From NCBI GenBank assembly GCA_019358935.1, contig JAHHIK010000001.1:96001-160000 (forward strand): 64,000 bases of DNA. Reading direction: 5' to 3'. The notes beneath the pieces were generated by a model, which searched no databases, was not told the DNA's origin, and worked only from the letters and a program-made list of their open reading frames with translations. This DNA is from Tolypothrix carrinoi HA7290-LM1. Its GTDB lineage: Bacteria; Cyanobacteriota; Cyanobacteriia; Cyanobacteriales; Nostocaceae. The position numbers were made by a program, and so were the translations under genes. Numbering within the stretch: position 1 is the first letter of the stretch; each line of letters opens with the position of its first letter. Shown in pieces: positions 54,641-64,000 of this stretch.

Positions 54641-56017
54641 TTACGTTAATCCCAACCAAGAGAAGAGATTTTGCCACCAAGAACTACTCACCTGACCAAC
54701 AAGTTTCATTTTTTTGCGAATGTCTTGAATATTCCAATTAGTTAATTTAGCAAGAGTTTGCGCTTCTTTTTCAAAACGCTTGCCCAAAGACCGTTTGTAT
54801 TCTCTTCCCGCTTGACATGTAACTTCACCTGTAAACGGGTGTTGCAAAACGTAACGTCCTTGAAAAGATTCGCGGTTAGAGGTTTGCTGAAACATCAAGT
54901 CTTCCGGGAATTTGTCGCGGGTGTAGCGGACATGCAAGCGAGAAATGAAAACGCTACTAGAAGGGCTTGGTGGACGAAAGCGACGGGGTGCGGGTGCGTT
55001 TACCCCAAAATCATTATCTAGCCAAAATACGCCCGCTTGCTTGAGTTCCTGCTGGCTGAGAGGTTCGGCAGAACAAGGATCGCAATTACTCATATCCCAA
55101 GCATATTCTAAAAATGCCACTTTTCTATCTTCTTTGATGTAAGAAGTTTGAAACATGGATTTATAAAAGTCGCTAAATTCATCTTTGACAAATAAAGGAA
55201 TATTGTCACCTGAAGGAACTTTCACTGTCCGGTAATTCGTAATTTCTGCCTGTCCTTTGGGCGATAAAATGTAGACAATCAAATCTTGTTCGGTTGTGGC
55301 GTTAATCATGCCCAAACGAATTGGCAGCATGAATTTAGGTGAAGAGTAAGAAATTTGCAAAGGACGCAGAAACTGATAGCCAGATTCCTCAAATTTATCT
55401 AAGTTGACTTTAGCAACAAAGAATTTCATTGAGGAACGAATGTAAGGCTGAAGTAGCTGTTTTGCCCCTCTAGGAATTTTATAACCGTTGCGGTTCAACC
55501 AAGTTTCCAGTCCGCCAGATTCTTTAGCGCTAAGAATTACAATATCGTATTCGCCAACGTTGAAACGCGCTTCGACAGTCACACCTAAATTGTCAGTACT
55601 CCTGGCATTTCCTACCCGATTTCTTGGTGCTGCCATTGGTGCAGGTAAAACCCCTCCTCTTTCTTCGTAAACTGGCGCACAGGGGTCAGAGTCAAAATAT
55701 TCTACCAATCGTGGAGCGCTAAAAGCATCTAGGCGCTCAATAATTTTCGCTTGGGCAACGCGCACTTGCTCTTTTTGTAATACTGTCGGTACAGGCACGA
55801 CAATTGCAAAATCTTTTACTTCGCCCTGAAAGTCATTTGCCATCGTCAAGACAGTGCGATCGCCTTCTCGCGCAATTACCACCTGAGAAGCTTTGTTATA
55901 CAGTTTTGCATCAGCTTTAGCAACATAAAATCCACAAAATGCCCAAGCCGCCGGCGTAAAACAAAATACAGCAACAAATGTTAGTACTAAAGAAATTAAC
56001 AATCGAAAAGGTTTCAT
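54641..56017 (-). CDS. DUF2330 domain secreted protein
   Basis: Signal peptide then AFCGFYV, FA.VVPVP, L..WL..NGY, P.RLG. Confidence 0.85.
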   Translation of the reverse strand: MKPFRLLISLVLTFVAVFCFTPAAWAFCGFYVAKADAKLYNKASQVVIAREGDRTVLTMANDFQGEVKDFAIVVPVPTVLQKEQVRVAQAKIIERLDAFSAPRLVEYFDSDPCAPVYEERGGVLPAPMAAPRNRVGNARSTDNLGVTVEARFNVGEYDIVILSAKESGGLETWLNRNGYKIPRGAKQLLQPYIRSSMKFFVAKVNLDKFEESGYQFLRPLQISYSSPKFMLPIRLGMINATTEQDLIVYILSPKGQAEITNYRTVKVPSGDNIPLFVKDEFSDFYKSMFQTSYIKEDRKVAFLEYAWDMSNCDPCSAEPLSQQELKQAGVFWLDNDFGVNAPAPRRFRPPSPSSSVFISRLHVRYTRDKFPEDLMFQQTSNRESFQGRYVLQHPFTGEVTCQAGREYKRSLGKRFEKEAQTLAKLTNWNIQDIRKKMKLVGQVSSSWWQNLFSWLGLT

Positions 56018-56345
56018 GTTTGTTAGTTGATAGTTGATAGTTGATAGTTGTTAGTTGATAGTTGATGGTTGTTAGTTGATGGTGAGTCAGTGCGTTGGGG
56101 AGGCAGTGCGTTGCGGAGGTCACGAGCGTTGAAGCACCTGCCGTCGGGTTTCCCGACAGTCACGCATCTGACGAACCCGAAGGGTTGATGGTTGATAGTT
56201 GATAGTTGATAGTTGATAGTTGATGGTTGATGGTTGGAAAATACTACTAACAACTAACCACTAACAACTAACCAATAACAACTAACCACTAACCACTAAC
56301 AACTAACCACTACCCATTCCCCATTCCCCATTCCCCATTCCCCAA
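56018..56345. repeat. STRR tracts with nested SDR-like units (56084-56184)
   Basis: (GTTGATA)n, (ACTAACC/ACTAACA)n, (CCCCATT)n. Confidence 0.88.
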
Positions 56346-57172
56346 GAAAATCGCGGTGCTTTCCACAAGGTATCTAGCAGGATAGTCAAAGGGGCAAGGG
56401 CAAACAGTGCCCAAAAAACTGCGGTGGAAACAAAAAAATAATTCCGCAGAATAAAAGTTAATATGGCGATGCACATTGCCCAAATCACACGCGCAATTCG
56501 AGCATTGGGAATTGACCGGGGGTCTGTTACCATAAACAGGGCAAATAGCAGCAACGATCCACTCATCAATCGATGCCAGTAAACATCCCAAGTCCAGCCC
56601 AACCAAAAATTGCGAATTGCTTCCATAAAAGCGTATGTAATTAAAAAAGCAGCTGTTGTATCCCAACGTCCGACTCGCTTGAGAATCATGCCACCTGTGC
56701 CGGCAAATAACAGCCCATACCACCAATCATCACCCCATTGTCCCGGTGAAACCCAGGCATCGGGGGTTAGTAATAAGGCACAAATGATACCAGCGTTGGC
56801 GGGATTAAAGAAATGTTTATCGCCGACTTTGAAGACAAATTTACTAGCGATCGCCACAAATCCAGCTAAAGCCATTGTCGTCCAATCATCAGCCCGTAAA
56901 AGTAAGCTAAGTCCCAACGCAGTAATTAGAGGACTCCGAAAGTTTGTTTTTTCTTCTTTGTCTGTTGCAAATGACTTTTGACTCGTACAGACGCGATATA
57001 TCGCGTCTCTACAACTCTTGACTAATGACAAAAGCCATTGCGTTGATACACAGGTTGCGATCGCCACTACAATCAACTCTGGTCGCAGCGTCCAGTCTCT
57101 TGTACCAATTCCCAAAACTAGGAATAAGGAAAGAAATAAAATTTGATAATCTCGTATATCTTTGAGCAACAT
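56303..57172 (-). CDS. RnfD/NqrB-like membrane protein
   Basis: D.R.YQI, SKF...KH.FNPA, LFA.FM.TDP; the C-terminus runs into STRR. Confidence 0.82.
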   Translation of the reverse strand: MLLKDIRDYQILFLSLFLVLGIGTRDWTLRPELIVVAIATCVSTQWLLSLVKSCRDAIYRVCTSQKSFATDKEEKTNFRSPLITALGLSLLLRADDWTTMALAGFVAIASKFVFKVGDKHFFNPANAGIICALLLTPDAWVSPGQWGDDWWYGLLFAGTGGMILKRVGRWDTTAAFLITYAFMEAIRNFWLGWTWDVYWHRLMSGSLLLFALFMVTDPRSIPNARIARVIWAMCIAILTFILRNYFFVSTAVFWALFALAPLTILLDTLWKAPRFSWGMGNGEWGMGSG

Positions 57173-58319: not shown

Positions 58320-58679
58320 TTAAGATACGTTGGAGTTGCTTCTAGCGACTTTGCGTTTGTGAGCTACTTCAGGTTGGGGTGTGCTAGCAAGCGTTGGCTC
58401 GTCAGTTCCCAATAGGTCATGTATCTGGTTTAAAGATGTTGGTGTTTTTGCCGAAATCTCTTCTGGTGATGCACTTACGTACTCAATCAGGTCTTCTACC
58501 TTGCAGTTCAGAGCTTGGCAAAATCTCACGATTCTTTCAATATGGTCTGTTCCAGTCCTGCCACTCTCCCAGTTTTGGATCGTGCTTTCAGTCACTCCGA
58601 CAAGACGTGATAGCTCAAGCTGGGTCAGCCCTGCTTTGTCACGCAGAAAGGCGATTCTTGGTTTTGCTTTCTGTTTCAC
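58320..58679 (-). CDS. XRE-family HTH transcriptional regulator, divergent from the tandem array
   Basis: LR.KAGLTQ.ELS.LVGV..STIQNWESG. Confidence 0.9.
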   Translation of the reverse strand: MKQKAKPRIAFLRDKAGLTQLELSRLVGVTESTIQNWESGRTGTDHIERIVRFCQALNCKVEDLIEYVSASPEEISAKTPTSLNQIHDLLGTDEPTLASTPQPEVAHKRKVARSNSNVS

Positions 58680-59060
58680 AGCTACAGCACTTTATATTTT
58701 AACTTATAGTCGTAGATCCTAGCACCAAAAAAAACCAGCGCCCAGGAATTTCCCAAAAAAAACTTTTGCCCAAACTCTTGACACCCCCAATAACTTTGGT
58801 TAAAACTATTGGGTATGAGATTAGCCTCTTTTAGAGTCCGATTATAAAGGACAGATAAAGCGCACGCATTCAACTTGAAAAAAACTTTCAGAAAAATCCG
58901 GAATGATGCGACTTTGATTTGAATCTCATAACATCAAACGACAGCGTAAAAACCCTGAGAACTCCTCAAATTTTAAGTATGTATACGCAAATTGAGTCAC
59001 AGGATTTATAAGTCAGTTTGAACCAACTACAACATACAAATAATCAGGTCTAGAAATATT

Positions 59061-59438
59061 ATGTTGAAGAATTTCGCTTTTGGTTTACTGGCTGCAACTT
59101 TGGCGATCGCTCCTGGTGCAGCAGCATTTGCAGGTCAAGGTCAAAGCAACGTGCAAGTTACCACACAAGACGGTGCAGCAATCGATGGTAGCACCAACGC
59201 TCAAAGCTCCACAAGCACCAACGTGCAACAACAAATTCAAAACGCACAGAAAAAAGCTGGTGCTTATCGTCCTGGCAGATACTACAACCCGGCTTGCAGA
59301 GGTGGATCAACTGCTCAATCTCAAGGTTCTGTACAACGTACAAGCCAAAGCGGTGCTGCAATTGGCGGTTCTGTGAATGCTCAAGATAGCGTTACAACCA
59401 GCAATCAGCGTCAAATTTTAGCTGCCGGCTGCCGCTAA
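59061..59438 (+). CDS. Secreted Q/N/S/T-rich two-repeat protein, copy 1
   Basis: Sec signal ending AFA, two 34-aa repeats, 2 Cys. Confidence 0.9.
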   Translation: MLKNFAFGLLAATLAIAPGAAAFAGQGQSNVQVTTQDGAAIDGSTNAQSSTSTNVQQQIQNAQKKAGAYRPGRYYNPACRGGSTAQSQGSVQRTSQSGAAIGGSVNAQDSVTTSNQRQILAAGCR

Positions 59439-59561
59439 TTACTGCATAAGTTCCGATGGCGTTACCTACTTAATAAAAGAATCACGCTAACGATTCCACA
59501 AGTCAAATAACGCCTTCTTTTTCATCAACAACACATACACAAATATTTAGGTATAAAAACA

Positions 59562-59936
59562 ATGTTGAAGAATCTCGCATTTGGTATCTTAGCCGCAGCA
59601 ATCGCGATCGCTCCTGGTGCAGCATTTGCCGGTCAAGGTCAAAGCAACGTGCAAGTTACCACACAAGACGGTGCAGCAATCGATGGTAGCACCAACGCTC
59701 AAAGCTCCACAAGCACCAACGTGCAACAACAAATTCAAAACGCACAGAAAAAAGCTGGTGCTTATCGTCCTGGCAGATACTACAACCCGGCTTGCAGAGG
59801 TGGATCAACTGCTCAATCTCAAGGTTCTGTACAACGTACAAGCCAAAGCGGTGCTGCAATTGGCGGTTCTGTGAATGCTCAAGATAGCGTTACAACCAGC
59901 AATCAGCGTCAAATTTTAGCTGCCGGCTGCCGCTAA
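59562..59936 (+). CDS. Secreted Q/N/S/T-rich two-repeat protein, copy 2
   Basis: Mature part identical to copy 1. Confidence 0.9.
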   Translation: MLKNLAFGILAAAIAIAPGAAFAGQGQSNVQVTTQDGAAIDGSTNAQSSTSTNVQQQIQNAQKKAGAYRPGRYYNPACRGGSTAQSQGSVQRTSQSGAAIGGSVNAQDSVTTSNQRQILAAGCR

Positions 59937-60059
59937 TTACTGCATAAGTTCCGATGGCGTTACCTACTTAATAAAAGAATCACGCTAACGATTCCACAAG
60001 TCAAATAACGCCTTCTTTTTCATCAACAACACATACACAAATATTTAGGTATAAAAACA

Positions 60060-60434
60060 ATGTTGAAGAATCTCGCATTTGGTATCTTAGCCGCAGCAAT
60101 CGCGATCGCTCCTGGTGCAGCATTTGCCGGTCAAGGTCAAAGCAACGTGCAAGTTACCACACAAGACGGTGCAGCAATCGATGGTAGCACCAACGCTCAA
60201 AGCTCCACCAGCACCAACGTGCAACAACAAATTCAAAACGCACAGAAAAAAGCTGGTCGTTATCACGGTGGCAGATACTACAACCCGGCTTGCAGAGGTG
60301 GATCAACTGCTCAATCTCAAGGTTCTGTCCAACGTACAAGCCAAAGCGGTGCTGCAATTGGCGGTTCTGTGAATGCTCAAGATAGCACCACAACCAGCAA
60401 TCAGCGTCAAATTTTAGCTGCCGGCTGCCGCTAA
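60060..60434 (+). CDS. Secreted Q/N/S/T-rich two-repeat protein, copy 3
   Basis: Linker RYHGGRYYNPAC, tail AAGCR. Confidence 0.9.
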   Translation: MLKNLAFGILAAAIAIAPGAAFAGQGQSNVQVTTQDGAAIDGSTNAQSSTSTNVQQQIQNAQKKAGRYHGGRYYNPACRGGSTAQSQGSVQRTSQSGAAIGGSVNAQDSTTTSNQRQILAAGCR

Positions 60435-60558
60435 TTACTGCATAAGTTCCGATGGCGTTACCTACTTAATAAAAGAATCACCACTAGATTCCACAAGTCA
60501 AATAACGCCTTCTTTTTCATCAACAACACTCACACACAAGTAAATTAGGTTTAAAACA

Positions 60559-60933
60559 ATGTTGAAGAATTTTGCTTTTGGTATCTTAGCTGCTGCGATC
60601 GCTATTGCTCCGGGTGCAGCATTTGCCGGTCAATCTCAAAGCAACGTGCAAATTACTGAGCAAAACGGTACAGCAATCAATGGTAGCACCAACGCTCAAA
60701 GCTCCACCAGCACCAACGTGCAACAACAAATTCAAAACGCACAGAAAAAAGCTGGTCGTTATCACGGTGGCAGATACTACAACCCGGCTTGCAGAGGTGG
60801 ATCAAGTGCTCAAGCTCAAGGTTCTACTCAAATTACACGCCAAAGCGGTGCTGCGATTGACGGTTCTGTGAATGCTCAAGATAGCGTTACAACTAGCAAT
60901 CAGCGTCAAGTTTTAGCTCGTCGCGGCTGCTAA
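60559..60933 (+). CDS. Secreted Q/N/S/T-rich two-repeat protein, copy 4
   Basis: Variant repeats, tail RRGC. Confidence 0.9.
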   Translation: MLKNFAFGILAAAIAIAPGAAFAGQSQSNVQITEQNGTAINGSTNAQSSTSTNVQQQIQNAQKKAGRYHGGRYYNPACRGGSSAQAQGSTQITRQSGAAIDGSVNAQDSVTTSNQRQVLARRGC

Positions 60934-61035
60934 TTATTCTATCAAGTTATCAGGCGTTGCTTACCATTATTTGATGAACATACAACGCCATTTCTCTCAT
61001 CAACCATACACACACAATTAATCAAGTCTAAAAAT

Positions 61036-61410
61036 ATGTTGAAGAATCTTGCATTTGGTATCTTAGCCGCAGCAATCGCGATCGCTCCTGGTGCAGCATT
61101 TGCCGGTCAAGGTCAAAGCAACGTGCAAGTTACCACACAAGACGGTGCAGCAATCGATGGTAGCACCAACGCTCAAAGCTCCACCAGCACCAACGTGCAA
61201 CAACAAATTCAAAACGCACAGAAAAAAGCTGGTCGTTATCACGGTGGCAGATACTACAACCCCGCTTGCAGAGGTGGATCAAGTGCTCAATCTCAAGGTT
61301 CTGTACAACGTACAAGCCAAAGCGGTGCTGCAATTGGCGGTTCTGTGAATGCTCAAGATAGCGTTACAACCAGCAATCAGCGTCAAATTTTAGCTCGTCG
61401 CGGCTGCTAA
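61036..61410 (+). CDS. Secreted Q/N/S/T-rich two-repeat protein, copy 5
   Basis: Linker RYHGGRYYNPAC, tail RRGC. Confidence 0.9.
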   Translation: MLKNLAFGILAAAIAIAPGAAFAGQGQSNVQVTTQDGAAIDGSTNAQSSTSTNVQQQIQNAQKKAGRYHGGRYYNPACRGGSSAQSQGSVQRTSQSGAAIGGSVNAQDSVTTSNQRQILARRGC

Positions 61411-61535
61411 TTACTGCATAAGTTCCGATGGCGTTACCTAATTAATAAAAGAATCACCACAAGATTCCACTGACTCAAATAACGCCTTCTTTTTCATCAA
61501 CAACACTCACACACAAGTAAATTAGGTTTAAAACA

Positions 61536-61901
61536 ATGTTGAAGAATTTTGCTTTTGGTATTTTGGCTGCTGCGATCGCGATCGCTCCTGGTGCAGCATT
61601 TGCAGGTCAAGGTCAAAGCAACGTCCAAGTTACCACACAAGACGGTGCTGCAATCAATGGTAGCACCAACGCTCAAAGCTCCGTCAGCACCAACCGCCAA
61701 CAACAAATTCAAAACGCACAGAAAAAAGCTGGTGGATACCGTGGCAGCTACTACAAGCCCCGCTACCCCAAAGCTAACACAAACCAATCTCAAGGCTCTG
61801 TCCAACGTACAAGCCAAAGTGGTGCTGCGATTGATGGTTCTGTGAATGCTCAAGATAGCGTAACCCGCAACAACCAAACCCAAAATGTTCGCGGTCGCTA
61901 A
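61536..61901 (+). CDS. Secreted Q/N/S/T-rich two-repeat protein, copy 6 (Cys-free)
   Basis: Linker GYRGSYYKPRYPK, tail VRGR. Confidence 0.9.
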   Translation: MLKNFAFGILAAAIAIAPGAAFAGQGQSNVQVTTQDGAAINGSTNAQSSVSTNRQQQIQNAQKKAGGYRGSYYKPRYPKANTNQSQGSVQRTSQSGAAIDGSVNAQDSVTRNNQTQNVRGR

Positions 61902-62003
61902 TTATTAATTAAGTTCAATGGCGTTGCATACATTACTTAACAACAGACAACGCCCGCATCGCTCATCAACAACACTCACACACAAATATTAAGGTTTAAA
62001 ACA

Positions 62004-62369
62004 ATGTTGAAGAATTTTGCTTTCGGTATTTTGGCTGCTGCTTTAGCTATTGCTCCTGGTGCAGCATTTGCAGGTCAAGGTCAAAGCAACGTGCAAGTTA
62101 CCACACAAGACGGTGCTGCAATCAATGGTAGCACCAACGCTCAAAGCTCCACAAGCTCCAACCGCCAACAACAAATTCAAAACGCACAGAAAAAAGCTGG
62201 TGGTTACCGTGGCAGCTACTACAAGCCCCGCTACCCCAAAGCTAACACAAACCAATCTCAAGGCTCTGTCCAACGTACAAGCCAAAGCGGTGCTGCGATT
62301 GACGGTTCTGTGAATGCTCAAGATAGCGTAACCCGCAACAACCAAACCCAAAATGTTCGCGGTCGCTAA
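62004..62369 (+). CDS. Secreted Q/N/S/T-rich two-repeat protein, copy 7 (Cys-free)
   Basis: Nearly identical to copy 6. Confidence 0.9.
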   Translation: MLKNFAFGILAAALAIAPGAAFAGQGQSNVQVTTQDGAAINGSTNAQSSTSSNRQQQIQNAQKKAGGYRGSYYKPRYPKANTNQSQGSVQRTSQSGAAIDGSVNAQDSVTRNNQTQNVRGR

Positions 62370-62472
62370 TTATTAATTAAGTTCAAAGGCGTTGCTAATT
62401 AAAGTTTAACTCAAACAACGCCCTTTCCAAACAAAAACAACACTCACACACAAGTAAATTAGGTTTAAAACA

Positions 62473-62838
62473 ATGTTGAAGAATTTTGCTTTCGGTATTT
62501 TGGCTGCTGCGATCGCGATCGCTCCTGGTGCTGCATTTGCAGGTCAATATCAAGGCAACGTGCAGTCTACCACACAAGACGGTGCTGCAATCAATGGTAG
62601 CACCAACGCTCAAAGCTCCGTCAGCACCAACCGCCAACAACAAATTCAAAACGCACAGAAAAAAGCTGGTGGTTACCGTGGCAGCTACTACAAGCCCCGC
62701 TACCCCAAAGCTAACACAAACCAATCTCAAAACTCTAGACAAGGTACACACCAAAGCGGTGCTGCGATTGACGGTTCTGTGAATGCTCAAGATAGCACAA
62801 CCCGCAACAACCAAAGCCAAAGTGTTCGCGGTCGCTAA
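62473..62838 (+). CDS. Secreted Q/N/S/T-rich two-repeat protein, copy 8 (Cys-free)
   Basis: Variant of copy 6. Confidence 0.9.
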   Translation: MLKNFAFGILAAAIAIAPGAAFAGQYQGNVQSTTQDGAAINGSTNAQSSVSTNRQQQIQNAQKKAGGYRGSYYKPRYPKANTNQSQNSRQGTHQSGAAIDGSVNAQDSTTRNNQSQSVRGR

Positions 62839-62952
62839 TTATTAATTGAGTTATTAGGCGTTGCATTCATTGAAGGAATCAGCCAAATTATTCTGCTTCT
62901 AGAGCAACGCCTGCTCGAAATCACTAAGAAATTTCAAATCGGATTCAAAAAT

Positions 62953-63303
62953 ATGTTGAAGAAAACTTACGCTTTTAGTCTTTTAGCCGCAGCAATGATT
63001 ATAGCACCATCTGCTGCCTTCGCAGGCGATTCAGGTACTCGCCAAGAGCTTAATCAAAGTGCTACTTCGATTAACAACAGTCGAGTCGATCAAAAAGCTA
63101 GCCAAACTAGCTACCAGTACCGCACCAATGGAGCAGGTTCTCGCTACGGCAACAAATACTGTGGAGGAAACCAGCAATCACAACGCTCAAATCAGCGTAT
63201 TGACCAAAATGGTGTAGCGATCAATGATAGCGTTGTCAGCCAACGTGCCGACCAAACAAACTTGCAACGTCAAGCTGGTGCCGCTCAACGGTACTGCCGC
63301 TAA
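62953..63303 (+). CDS. Secreted Q/N/S/T-rich two-repeat protein, divergent copy 9
   Basis: Same signal and Q spacing but divergent sequence; 2 Cys (KYCGG, RYCR). Confidence 0.88.
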   Translation: MLKKTYAFSLLAAAMIIAPSAAFAGDSGTRQELNQSATSINNSRVDQKASQTSYQYRTNGAGSRYGNKYCGGNQQSQRSNQRIDQNGVAINDSVVSQRADQTNLQRQAGAAQRYCR

Positions 63304-63585
63304 AGCACTTGTGTTATCAGCTTAAGCTATCAAGTTTCAAACTTAAAATGCTGTGGCTGCTGACTAAACCCTTGATTAATTCTACTGCCACGAGAAAGGC
63401 GTTGTTAAATAATTCTTGCAGCGCCGGGATCCGATAAGCAAATTGCTTTTAAGTCGAATTAGTCTGGAGTGCGATCGTGTGGTGTGGTGTGGTGCTGACA
63501 GCTTTTTAACAGGGGTATTACCGATTTGCTAGCTTGCGAAGCAGAAAAAAAAATCGGTTTTTTCTATTAGGAGAGTGATTAAGTT

Positions 63586-64000
63586 ATGTTTCCCAAACAA
63601 ACAGTTTCATTACTAGCAGTCTTGTCTGCGCTAATTGCATTACCAAGTGGAATTGCCAGAGCCGGTGACATTTTCGTTCAAACTGATAACGTTCAAGTCT
63701 CGGTTGGCAATGACAGCGGTATCCGGATTAACAACACTCCCACACACAGGTTCAAGTCTCCCCGTTGGCTTTCTGCACCGATCGCATCACCTCGCAGCAT
63801 TGTCACAGCAGGTAACACGATAGTTGAAACTGACGACGTTATGGTCGATGTTGATGACTACGATGACGACGACGATATCAGGGTTAACACAACTCCCAGA
63901 AGAACTATTATTCGCACTCCAGCGCGGATTTATCGACCAAATAATGTTCGGACTTACGGAATTTGGAAAAACCCCCGCTCAACTCCGTCTATGAAATGTA
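63586..64000 (+). CDS. Secreted hypothetical protein, truncated by the window end (not in ORF track)
   Basis: AGGAG then ATG 63586; MFPKQTVSLLAVLSALIALPSGIARA|GDIFVQTDNVQVSVG..DDYDDDDD..; frame open to 64000. Confidence 0.8.
   Translation, partial: MFPKQTVSLLAVLSALIALPSGIARAGDIFVQTDNVQVSVGNDSGIRINNTPTHRFKSPRWLSAPIASPRSIVTAGNTIVETDDVMVDVDDYDDDDDIRVNTTPRRTIIRTPARIYRPNNVRTYGIWKNPRSTPSMKC

Follow-up and report, generated by a model that had tools for sequence, protein, structure and literature searches.

Curli subunits contain about five units of about 22 residues each, and CsgA is acidic. The Fap system of Pseudomonas combines secreted, Q/N-rich repeat subunits (FapB and FapC, one major and one minor) with accessory genes in one operon, which also encodes the C39 peptidase FapD and the barrel protein FapF of the outer membrane, and GvpA is a cytoplasmic, hydrophobic protein without a signal peptide. 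The minimal curli repeat is given as X6-Q-X-G-X2-N-X10 in PMC3521004. In Synechococcus elongatus PCC 7942 an operon of four small secreted paralogues (EbfG1-4) is needed for biofilm formation; EbfG1-3 form amyloid-like fibrils, EbfG4 is a differentiated cell-surface or matrix member, and the proteins carry a double-glycine leader and are exported by the C39-peptidase transporter PteB together with EbfE (PMC9981879). In Microcystis aeruginosa the cyanobacterial tubular (CT) pilin MrpC combines a signal peptide with two long beta-hairpins and polymerises via lateral antiparallel sheets; its fold is reported to have no known relatives, its export route is unknown, and a pilin-like paralogue and 'cell surface' genes lie in its cluster (PMC12397347). 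A long beta-hairpin of GvpA is likewise described as forming lateral antiparallel sheets (PMC12397347), and seven tandem gvpA genes are reported for Anabaena sp. 90 (PMC3542288). Here we describe a locus of Tolypothrix carrinoi HA7290-LM1 at positions 59061-63303 of a 64,000-nucleotide stretch (positions 96,001 to 160,000 of contig JAHHIK010000001.1; hereafter the window), in which nine tandem genes encode small secreted repeat proteins. We propose, tentatively and at somewhat less than even confidence, that these genes encode subunits of a self-assembling beta-sheet material, extracellular or of the envelope, of sheathed heterocystous cyanobacteria.

The array consists of nine same-strand open reading frames (ORFs) of 116-125 codons each (Table 1), and Tandem Repeats Finder reports a 498-bp period over 59024-62796, with 7.7 copies, 87% matches and a score of 4562. 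The starting proposal of the initial annotation, that there are nine tandem genes, each with a Sec-type signal and two 34-residue repeats, is confirmed. Protein identity to copy 1 is 97, 94, 84, 93, 79, 80, 73 and 44% for copies 2 to 9 in order. At the DNA level no two of the nine copies are identical: copies 1-8 share 79-97% with one another and 54-56% with copy 9. The genome (7.96 Mb, 99.65% complete) has nine family matches, every one of them inside the array. It had been allowed that such an array might collapse as an artefact, and its conservation in other assemblies speaks to this: four closed or near-closed genomes (G391, G439, G340 and G384) hold 6, 5, 7 and 7 tandem copies, respectively. 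Because of these genomes, arrays of the family are not an assembly artefact; the count of nine in the Tolypothrix strain still needs long reads.

The array proteins have signal peptides, as judged by eye, with a basic n-region (MLKN or MLKK), a hydrophobic core of 14-15 residues, and an A-x-A motif followed by the mature Gly. The proposed signal ending APGAAFA is present in seven of the nine copies, the exceptions being copy 1 (APGAAAFA) and copy 9 (APSAAFA). In copies 1 and 2, the only ones read for this, the octamer GCGATCGC, which we take to be the HIP1 palindrome that is over-represented in cyanobacterial genomes, underlies the signal-peptide hydrophobic core (…AIAIAP…) at 59100-59112 and 59600-59612. 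The mature proteins are 92-101 residues long with isoelectric points (pI) of 9.9-10.7, a net charge of +5 to +8 and a grand average of hydropathicity (GRAVY) of -0.82 to -1.45; Q, N, S, T, G and A make up 63-72% of the residues, and Gln alone 16-17%. Large hydrophobic residues (L, F, M, W) number only 0-2 per mature protein, in agreement with the suggestion that there is essentially no hydrophobic core, and the repeats are free of Pro, as had been noted, since every Pro of the mature proteins sits in the Arg/Tyr/Gly-rich linker between them.

The two repeats, A and B, were quoted correctly in the initial annotation and have 19 of 34 residues in common. Gln is invariant in all nine copies at positions 8, 12, 24 and 32 of repeat A, and at positions 2, 4, 8, 12, 24, 32 and 34 of repeat B. 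The list of conserved Gln positions that had been drawn up (2, 4, 8, 12, 24, 32 and 34) therefore holds for repeat B and not for positions 2, 4 and 34 of repeat A, which are not Gln in copy 9; the additional Gln at position 28 of copy 9 is present, in repeat B. The placement of Gln on even positions also stands, applying to 14 of the 15 repeat Gln residues of copy 2, and was reached in 9 of 20,000 within-repeat shuffles, a test that overstates independence because repeats A and B are homologous. The even face is strongly polar, with mean Kyte-Doolittle values of -2.36 and -1.86, as against +0.48 and +0.15 for the mildly apolar odd face. The 'Gln ladder' is not universal, as the proteins of genome G384, from a distant genus, have Asn or Thr in place of most of the conserved Gln. 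The G384 locus (L049:8833-12748) encodes six proteins of 115-116 residues, a seventh variant and a terminal type, with length, turn and Cys pair all kept.

Evidence that each unit folds back on itself comes from an alignment of 226 unique family proteins of 95-140 residues. Repeat positions 8, 12, 16, 24 and 32 are each conserved in 209-224 of these, and the repeats are nearly gap-free, with the linker variable in both length and sequence. Exactly two Cys residues are present in 155 proteins, none in 66 and one in five. In all 155 two-Cys proteins the pair brackets repeat B, with a Cys-Cys span of 41-50 and a midpoint that lies -0.5 to +1.5 residues from the predicted turn centre in 151 of the 155 and within 3 residues in all. 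Such a pattern is expected of a disulfide that staples a strand-turn-strand unit at its open end, and a staple of this kind would imply an oxidising compartment. Mean co-variation, calculated as mutual information with average product correction over 341 unique repeat instances (effective number 82), peaks at pairs whose positions sum to 36 (0.0766, ranking first of 43 sums) and next at a sum of 38; among the 15 top co-varying pairs, four have a sum of 36 and two a sum of 38. The mirror register 12/24, 4/32 and 2/34 that had been put forward is the one with a sum of 36, and it gains support from both the co-variation and the turn-centred Cys pair. The fold-back of each unit is thus supported by these alignment data, which a hairpin and a beta-arch would fit equally well.

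AlphaFold models computed with 19 and 42 sequences each contain two long hairpins, with strands at E2-15/E21-35 and E59-75/E81-97, and at E10-17/E21-35 and E70-77/E81-95, respectively. With a mean predicted local distance difference test (pLDDT) score of 54.5 and 48.6 these are low-confidence models, and the predicted hairpins are merely consistent with the fold-back register. Prediction of a homo-oligomer of four mature copies (alignment A3) gave 0.30, 0.36 and 0.60 relative to a mark of 0.42, with controls at 0.00-0.01, and speaks neither for nor against binding. A Foldseek search of the PDB with the pLDDT-54.5 model gave no matches at E<=0.001. In a wide VIA-align search the best Z was 8.3, for gasdermin-like matches (MACPF and gasdermin pore hairpins) followed by levivirus coats, which is at the tool's noise level and reflects only the presence of two long hairpins; the CT pilus is not among the best 50 rows, which is uninformative. 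A membrane-pore reading, raised by the pore-hairpin matches, was rejected, as the less polar face holds Asp, Arg and Asn.

The nine copies are not equivalent. Copies 1-5 (class I) have two Cys residues, one in the linker just before repeat B and the other C-terminal; copies 6-8 (class II) are Cys-free and end in VRGR; and copy 9 (class III) is divergent, with two Cys flanking repeat B. The nine equal gene doses of the initial annotation are thus replaced by three conserved classes, together with three accessory genes (D1-D3) that follow the array. The order of class I, class II and a single class III recurs across assemblies, with 5+3+1 genes in Spirirestis rafaelensis, 2+2+1 in [Scytonema hofmanni] UTEX 2349, at least 3+2+1 in Plectonema radiosum NIES-515 and at least 1+1+1 in Tolypothrix brevis; the array of a Stigonema metagenome-assembled genome, on a 5.45-Mb contig, is 4+1. 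The class III copy is always the last family gene of an array. A maximum-likelihood tree was built from 51 complete copies at 12 loci, without partial ORFs and without loci that duplicate others of the same genome. In this tree class III forms one clade of 12 rows with support of 100/100, which spans the Tolypothrix-like genomes, Stigonema, G592 and G621, and class II forms a clade of 13 rows (support 100/99) nested within class I of the Tolypothrix-like genomes. Judging by these clades, the differentiated last gene is old and retained, and the abundant classes duplicate within lineages.

We scored codon usage by a per-codon log-ratio of six phycobiliprotein and 16 ribosomal-protein-operon genes relative to 2,519 ORFs of at least 300 residues. 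Eight of the nine array copies have scores no lower than the 99.5th percentile; copy 9 reaches 97.1, and the accessory genes D1, D2 and D3 reach 31.6, 78.8 and 17.5. Of background fragments of 124 codons, only 0.36% score as high as the array median. Among the preferred codons, AAC, ACC, GGT, TAC and ATC are shifted just as they are in the reference genes. The earlier suggestion of a bulk structural protein, drawn from gene dosage, gains independent support from this usage, which is typical of highly expressed genes, and the codon bias would fit classes I and II as abundant subunits, class III as a minor one and accessory proteins made at a low level. All seven ortholog pairs have a ratio of nonsynonymous to synonymous substitution (dN/dS) of 0.16-0.55, which denotes purifying selection, though not strict. 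Contigs that are at least 85% alike, from RNA libraries of three studies (X19, X20 and X24) and from X18, whose kind is guessed, cover copy 8, copy 9 and D1. Contigs from the same four sources also run from the end of one copy into the beginning of its successor within window positions 62400-62871 (the alignment 'goes back 436/464'); such spacer-bridging contigs of relatives would mean co-transcription if the material is RNA.

A plausible explanation of these features is that the precursors are exported by Sec and cleaved after A-F-A, to give mature proteins of about 100 residues that are basic and very hydrophilic and consist of two 34-residue strand-turn-strand units joined by the Arg/Tyr/Gly-rich linker. 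Each unit would fold back about a G-A-A-x-x-G-S turn, so as to present a Gln/Asn/Ser face and a Val/Thr/Ala face, and in most members a disulfide would staple the open end of the second unit. Subunits may then join edge-to-edge or stack to form sheets, fibres or tubes. The conservation of gene order and the codon bias suggest that classes I and II are the abundant building blocks, that class III is a minor subunit such as a nucleator, cap or anchor, that D1-D3 are low-abundance assembly or anchoring factors, and that the adjacent XRE-family regulator controls expression. More speculatively, the cationic Arg/Tyr linker probably binds anionic sheath polysaccharide. Taken further, these proteins could constitute a fibre or sheet system specific to cyanobacteria, with stapled double-hairpin subunits of three classes and three helpers, that is the scaffold of the firm sheath in false- and true-branching heterocystous cyanobacteria; we regard this extended proposal as possible but doubtful.

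Several points weigh against a self-assembling beta-sheet material. A polymer of the array proteins has never been observed, and the structure predictions are below usable confidence. Proteins so nearly devoid of hydrophobic residues could remain in solution or be disordered, and their net charge should oppose self-association unless polyanions are present. There is no recognisable outer-membrane export or assembly machine at the locus, D1-D3 are without a family match, and a search of the genome for CsgE, CsgF and CsgG was negative. The co-variation signal may be inflated, since repeats A and B, and sequences that are related to one another, were pooled. As the nine copies are paralogues, the codon result is one observation on a family and not nine tests, and dN/dS values up to 0.55 are fairly relaxed. 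The evidence for transcription is weak, since DNA carry-over is possible in the RNA-library contigs and their depth cannot rank genes, and we do not count it as proof of expression.

In view of the hydrophilicity and positive charge we are therefore cautious, and keep as the main rival the proposal that these are abundant soluble cationic proteins of the matrix, which coat or cross-link anionic sheath polysaccharide or hold water in the manner of hydrophilins, with no ordered polymer. The pI, charge, hydropathy and composition described above all agree with this, the low AlphaFold confidence fits disorder in isolation, and the codon bias would fit any abundant protein. Holders of the family such as Tolypothrix, Hassallia, Spirirestis, Scytonema, Stigonema and Brasilonema are, we presume, terrestrial or subaerial, which would suit a protectant. 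Hydrophilins and late embryogenesis abundant (LEA) proteins are characterised by high hydrophilicity, Gly content, disorder and tolerance of insertions and deletions; the GRAVY values of the array proteins fit this description, and the gap-free, position-specific repeats do not. Disordered protectants usually tolerate such length changes, whereas the position-specific conservation, the fixed 34-residue length, the turn-centred Cys pair and the anti-diagonal co-variation point to a defined fold, and three classes in fixed order with dedicated accessory genes exceed the needs of a simple coat protein. On balance we consider a soluble matrix role unlikely, if deserving of serious attention.

Among 1.84 billion representative proteins, a profile search yielded only 39 clusters at E<=0.001, of which 12 are at E<=1e-10. 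All combine a signal peptide with two repeats, or with three in P0108, P0115 and P0117. Records of the family are annotated as 'hypothetical' save for scattered automatic names. By name, the holders are Tolypothrix, Hassallia, Spirirestis, Plectonema radiosum, Scytonema, Brasilonema, Aetokthonos, Rivularia, Fischerella sp. PCC 9605, Stigonema and Cyanomargarita, genera that we take to be sheathed, false- or true-branching or tapering heterocystous forms. Whole-genome searches gave family matches in 111 of 389 genomes, and 29 of 68 genera, of the window's family (Nostocaceae). Most positive genomes have 2-11 matches, a figure that differs from copy number. The array conservation that the initial annotation had wanted checked across cyanobacteria is borne out, with tandem arrays being the rule. 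In an even sample of 300 other genomes of the order, the broader profile A3 found more distant members in 17; the narrower profile A2 gave no matches in the same 300, which marks a limit of sensitivity and not absence. Distant members in other families (L056:1501-1851, plus strand; L054:1468-1818, minus strand) are acidic, Cys-free proteins of 116 residues encoded by single genes. In one genome, G238, 14 family matches are dispersed over many contigs.

Table 1. Features of the array and its surroundings. Positions are those of the window unless prefixed by a locus handle.
Feature	Position	Strand	Remarks
XRE-family helix-turn-helix regulator	58320..58679	-	divergent from array; Pfam HTH_31, HTH_26, HTH_3, E about 1e-10
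Copy 1, class I	59061..59438	+	125 aa; two Cys, ends AAGCR
Spacer	59439..59561	+	inverted repeat GGCGTT[A/G] ... [T/C]AACGCC, then C/A-rich leader before next start codon
Copy 2, class I	59562..59936	+	124 aa
Spacer	59937-60059		built alike
Copy 3, class I	60060..60434	+	124 aa
Spacer	60435-60558		built alike
Copy 4, class I	60559..60933	+	124 aa; ends RRGC; nearest relative is copy 2 of the Spirirestis array
Spacer	60934-61035		built alike
Copy 5, class I	61036..61410	+	124 aa; ends RRGC
Spacer	61411-61535		built alike
Copy 6, class II	61536..61901	+	121 aa; no Cys, ends VRGR
Spacer	61902-62003		built alike
Copy 7, class II	62004..62369	+	121 aa
Spacer	62370-62472		built alike
Copy 8, class II	62473..62838	+	121 aa
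Spacer	62839-62952		built alike
Copy 9, terminal class III	62953..63303	+	116 aa; two Cys, 44% identical to copy 1
D1, accessory gene	63586..64000	+	170 aa; runs 98 bases past the window; signal peptide, internal repeat, C-terminal Cys pair
D2, accessory gene	L010:1133-1519		128 aa; just outside the window; four Cys
D3, accessory gene	L010:1681-2229		182 aa; just outside the window; N-terminal hydrophobic segment, Q/N-rich tract, beta-rich C-terminal part

The gene set extends past 63303 with three further genes for secreted proteins, D1-D3. None of these matches a Pfam family at E<=0.01, although D3 has two sub-threshold matches; their relatives are cyanobacterial hypothetical proteins only, and the ESM Atlas gave only hypothetical clusters for D3. 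D1-D3 lie downstream of the array in all nine close-relative loci with sufficient flank, and also in L046, L048, L050 and L051. The XRE gene, a candidate local regulator of the array, adjoins it in twelve loci (L011, L013, L014, L015, L022, L023, L024, L046, L047, L048, L050 and L051) and not in L049, and the order XRE-array-D1-D2-D3 is also kept in G391, G340, G592 and G621. Genes for PIN, MltA and CemA proteins are kept alongside the module, and much of the conserved order is general synteny. In genome G384 (L049) the array, a terminal-class gene, D2 and D3 are found behind a TPR gene without XRE or D1, and in G578 D1-like and D2 genes come after a family-like gene that stands alone. The module is kept where the surroundings change, as L049 shows, and the G384 and G578 loci are more telling than the general synteny. 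Two other possibilities for D2 were discarded: as a diverged copy of the array family, or carrier of the template repeat, it has an hhalign probability of 0.8%, and as a lipoprotein it misfits the lipobox, in which the residue before the Cys is constrained, with G, G, T or Q at that position in four orthologues.

The neighbouring genes carry XRE, polysaccharide deacetylase, PIN, MltA or CemA domains, or none, and two GT2 genes lie about 7-9 kb upstream of the array behind unrelated genes. The deacetylase and the MltA-type lytic transglycosylase could suggest that the array proteins are instead structural components of the periplasm or outer membrane, for example lining the peptidoglycan, the face of the outer membrane or the continuous periplasm of the filament. 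A Sec signal with no recognisable system for export across the outer membrane would be in keeping with this, and disulfides suit the periplasm and the exterior alike; because no export machine can be recognised, a location outside the periplasm is unproven. These two genes carry little weight here, as they belong to a general synteny block that also contains unrelated PIN and CemA genes, and the L049 module lies in different surroundings. Absence of the family from the search results for 278 of the 389 genomes would also be unexpected for a core part of the envelope, and we judge a periplasmic role improbable.

The adjoining regulator, together with small, basic, disulfide-stapled hairpin variants in tandem, also recalls a multi-variant array of precursors for secreted bioactive peptides, either Sec-dependent and bacteriocin-like or for signalling, similar to the arrays that cyanobacteria maintain for ribosomal peptides. 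Yet the leader is an ordinary Sec leader, neither of the double-glycine nor of the Nif11 type, the 'core' is highly conserved rather than hypervariable, and nothing in the vicinity is recognisable as a gene for a modifying enzyme, a C39 transporter or an immunity-like function. A less polar face with Asp, Arg and Asn would moreover make a poor membrane-active surface, and the phycobiliprotein-like codon usage points to mass production, such that a bioactive peptide is a very improbable explanation.

Alignment of the eight spacers and the upstream region places the inverted repeat about 20 nt past the stop codon in every spacer, with a loop of 20-45 nt and, in some spacers, a T-rich stretch after it. 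An A-to-G change on the 5' arm of the stem is paired with a T-to-C change on the 3' arm. Folding of five spacers predicts a stem of 7-9 bp with z-scores of -0.6 to -2.8, which is energetically weak. The inverted repeat may mark or protect transcript 3' ends. A consensus scan of 58600-64000 gave seven promoter-like sites relative to 7.0 expected and one terminator-like site relative to 7.2, and is uninformative on transcription units.

Further from the array, a 121-residue secreted paralogue of D1 (38% identity) is encoded about 3.4 kb past the window end (L010:6398-6763, minus strand), adjoining the CemA gene, and is conserved at the same place in L011, L013, L015 and L026. An 802-residue protein without a Pfam match (L010:8306-10714, plus strand) contains 12 GGQ triplets in a row and, after them, a tract rich in Ser and Pro. 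Ten kb downstream of the array, L010:10829-14311 (minus strand) encodes a protein of 1160 residues that combines a TPS secretion domain of the filamentous-haemagglutinin type (E 4.8e-57) with beta-helix-like repeats rich in Gly and Asn. The automatic name 'filamentous hemagglutinin' on small relatives of the array family probably denotes compositional likeness only. Within the window, 54641-57172 (minus strand) holds a conserved pair upstream of the polysaccharide deacetylase gene, encoding a DUF2330 protein (458 residues) and an RnfD/NqrB-like membrane protein (289 residues); the pair is ordinary and a link to the array is not evident.

The protein part of cyanobacterial sheaths, and the way in which filamentous cyanobacteria build firm extracellular layers, are poorly known. 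The family provides a concrete, unannotated candidate, present in 111 of 389 genomes with 5-9 copies per array in resolved loci and closed genomes and the codon usage of the most expressed genes, and the question is directly testable in culturable holders such as Tolypothrix sp. NIES-4075, [Scytonema hofmanni] UTEX 2349 and Fischerella sp. PCC 9605. Polymerisation would make these proteins a new and minimal two-hairpin building block with the logic of major and minor subunits built in, of interest for functional amyloids, pilus biology and protein materials. Should the doubtful sheath-scaffold proposal hold, this would be a third extracellular protein polymer of cyanobacteria, after the amyloid of EbfG and the tubular pilus, with no sequence relation to curli or Fap. 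Even without polymerisation, the array proteins remain a major secreted product of soil-crust and subaerial cyanobacteria that lacks an explanation.

The family has no Pfam or NCBIfam match at E<=10 beyond sub-threshold noise, and a profile of 19 members found no PDB chain at E<=10. The ESM Atlas returned only cyanobacterial clusters that lack a Pfam family and are either unnamed or bear the automatic name 'filamentous hemagglutinin'; these are probably the family's own distant members. No paper on the family was found in the literature on cyanobacterial functional amyloid, sheath and exoproteome, a search outside of which subscription journals and supplements lay. The family is undescribed in the libraries and literature searched.

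Curli is the comparison suggested by the initial annotation, which held that the repeat matches neither the curli nor the Fap consensus, and for curli our Pfam searches bear this out, being negative for array proteins, relatives and genome alike. The curlin family PF07012 has no match at E<=10 in five array proteins (copies 1, 4, 6, 8 and 9) or in 12 diverse relatives, which include a UniRef record auto-named 'Curlin-associated protein', and none in a six-frame search of the genome, with the E. coli control positive. Q-x-G-x-x-N is present in none of the nine array proteins; eight copies have two instances of Q-x-G-x-x-I and copy 9 has one. CsgG, CsgE and CsgF (PF03783, PF10627 and PF10614) were likewise not detected in the 99.65%-complete genome, with positive controls. 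For Fap, there is no Fap-named match in Pfam or NCBIfam at E<=10, with the presence of a Fap subunit model in either library unconfirmed, and no C39 peptidase or outer-membrane barrel gene lies at the array locus. The array proteins differ from curli in having two 34-residue units, a disulfide staple, a basic pI and a multi-copy array. They resemble CsgA and CsgB in Sec export and in Q/N/G-rich imperfect strand-turn-strand repeats, and the loci would be alike in setting a major-subunit gene beside a conserved minor paralogue and small secreted accessory proteins (PMC3521004 for curli). A distant homologue of the curli or Fap amyloids might be suspected from these likenesses, from the Q-x-G core and from the one curlin-associated automatic name; with the negative searches above, and a 34-residue unit present merely twice per protein, such membership is already largely refuted and its probability is minimal.

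Chaplins gave no match, and rodlin_AB (NCBIfam) matched copy 9 only, at E=1.3 and with 9 bits relative to a cut-off of 75. EbfG differs in its route of export, as the array proteins are of Sec type with A-F-A followed by Gly and no C39 transporter is present at the locus, and there is no relation in sequence, the EbfG hotspot motif described in PMC9981879 being absent from the array repeats as judged by reading.

The closest functional analogues are EbfG1-4 and two hairpin proteins that form lateral sheets, GvpA and MrpC. GvpA is similarly a small hairpin wall protein encoded by tandem identical or near-identical genes for dosage, whereas the array proteins carry a signal peptide and have no GvpA Pfam match at E<=10. 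MrpC is also small, with a signal peptide and a Ser/Thr-rich body of two hairpins, those of the array proteins being taken from the low-confidence models (pLDDT 54.5 and 48.6). MrpC has, however, a helix-turn-helix 'hook' at its C-terminus, whereas the array models have no C-terminal helix and end 4-7 residues past the last strand; the CT cluster has an O-GlcNAc transferase and a methyltransferase, neither of which adjoins the array, and a single pilin gene with one paralogue contrasts with an array of 5-9 copies. The sequence search of the PDB gave no matches, in a copy for which the presence of the CT pilus entry (pilin BH695_0841) is unconfirmed. A lateral hairpin sheet, as in the tubular pilus or the gas-vesicle wall, agrees with the data on the array proteins as well as cross-beta stacking of the curli type does.

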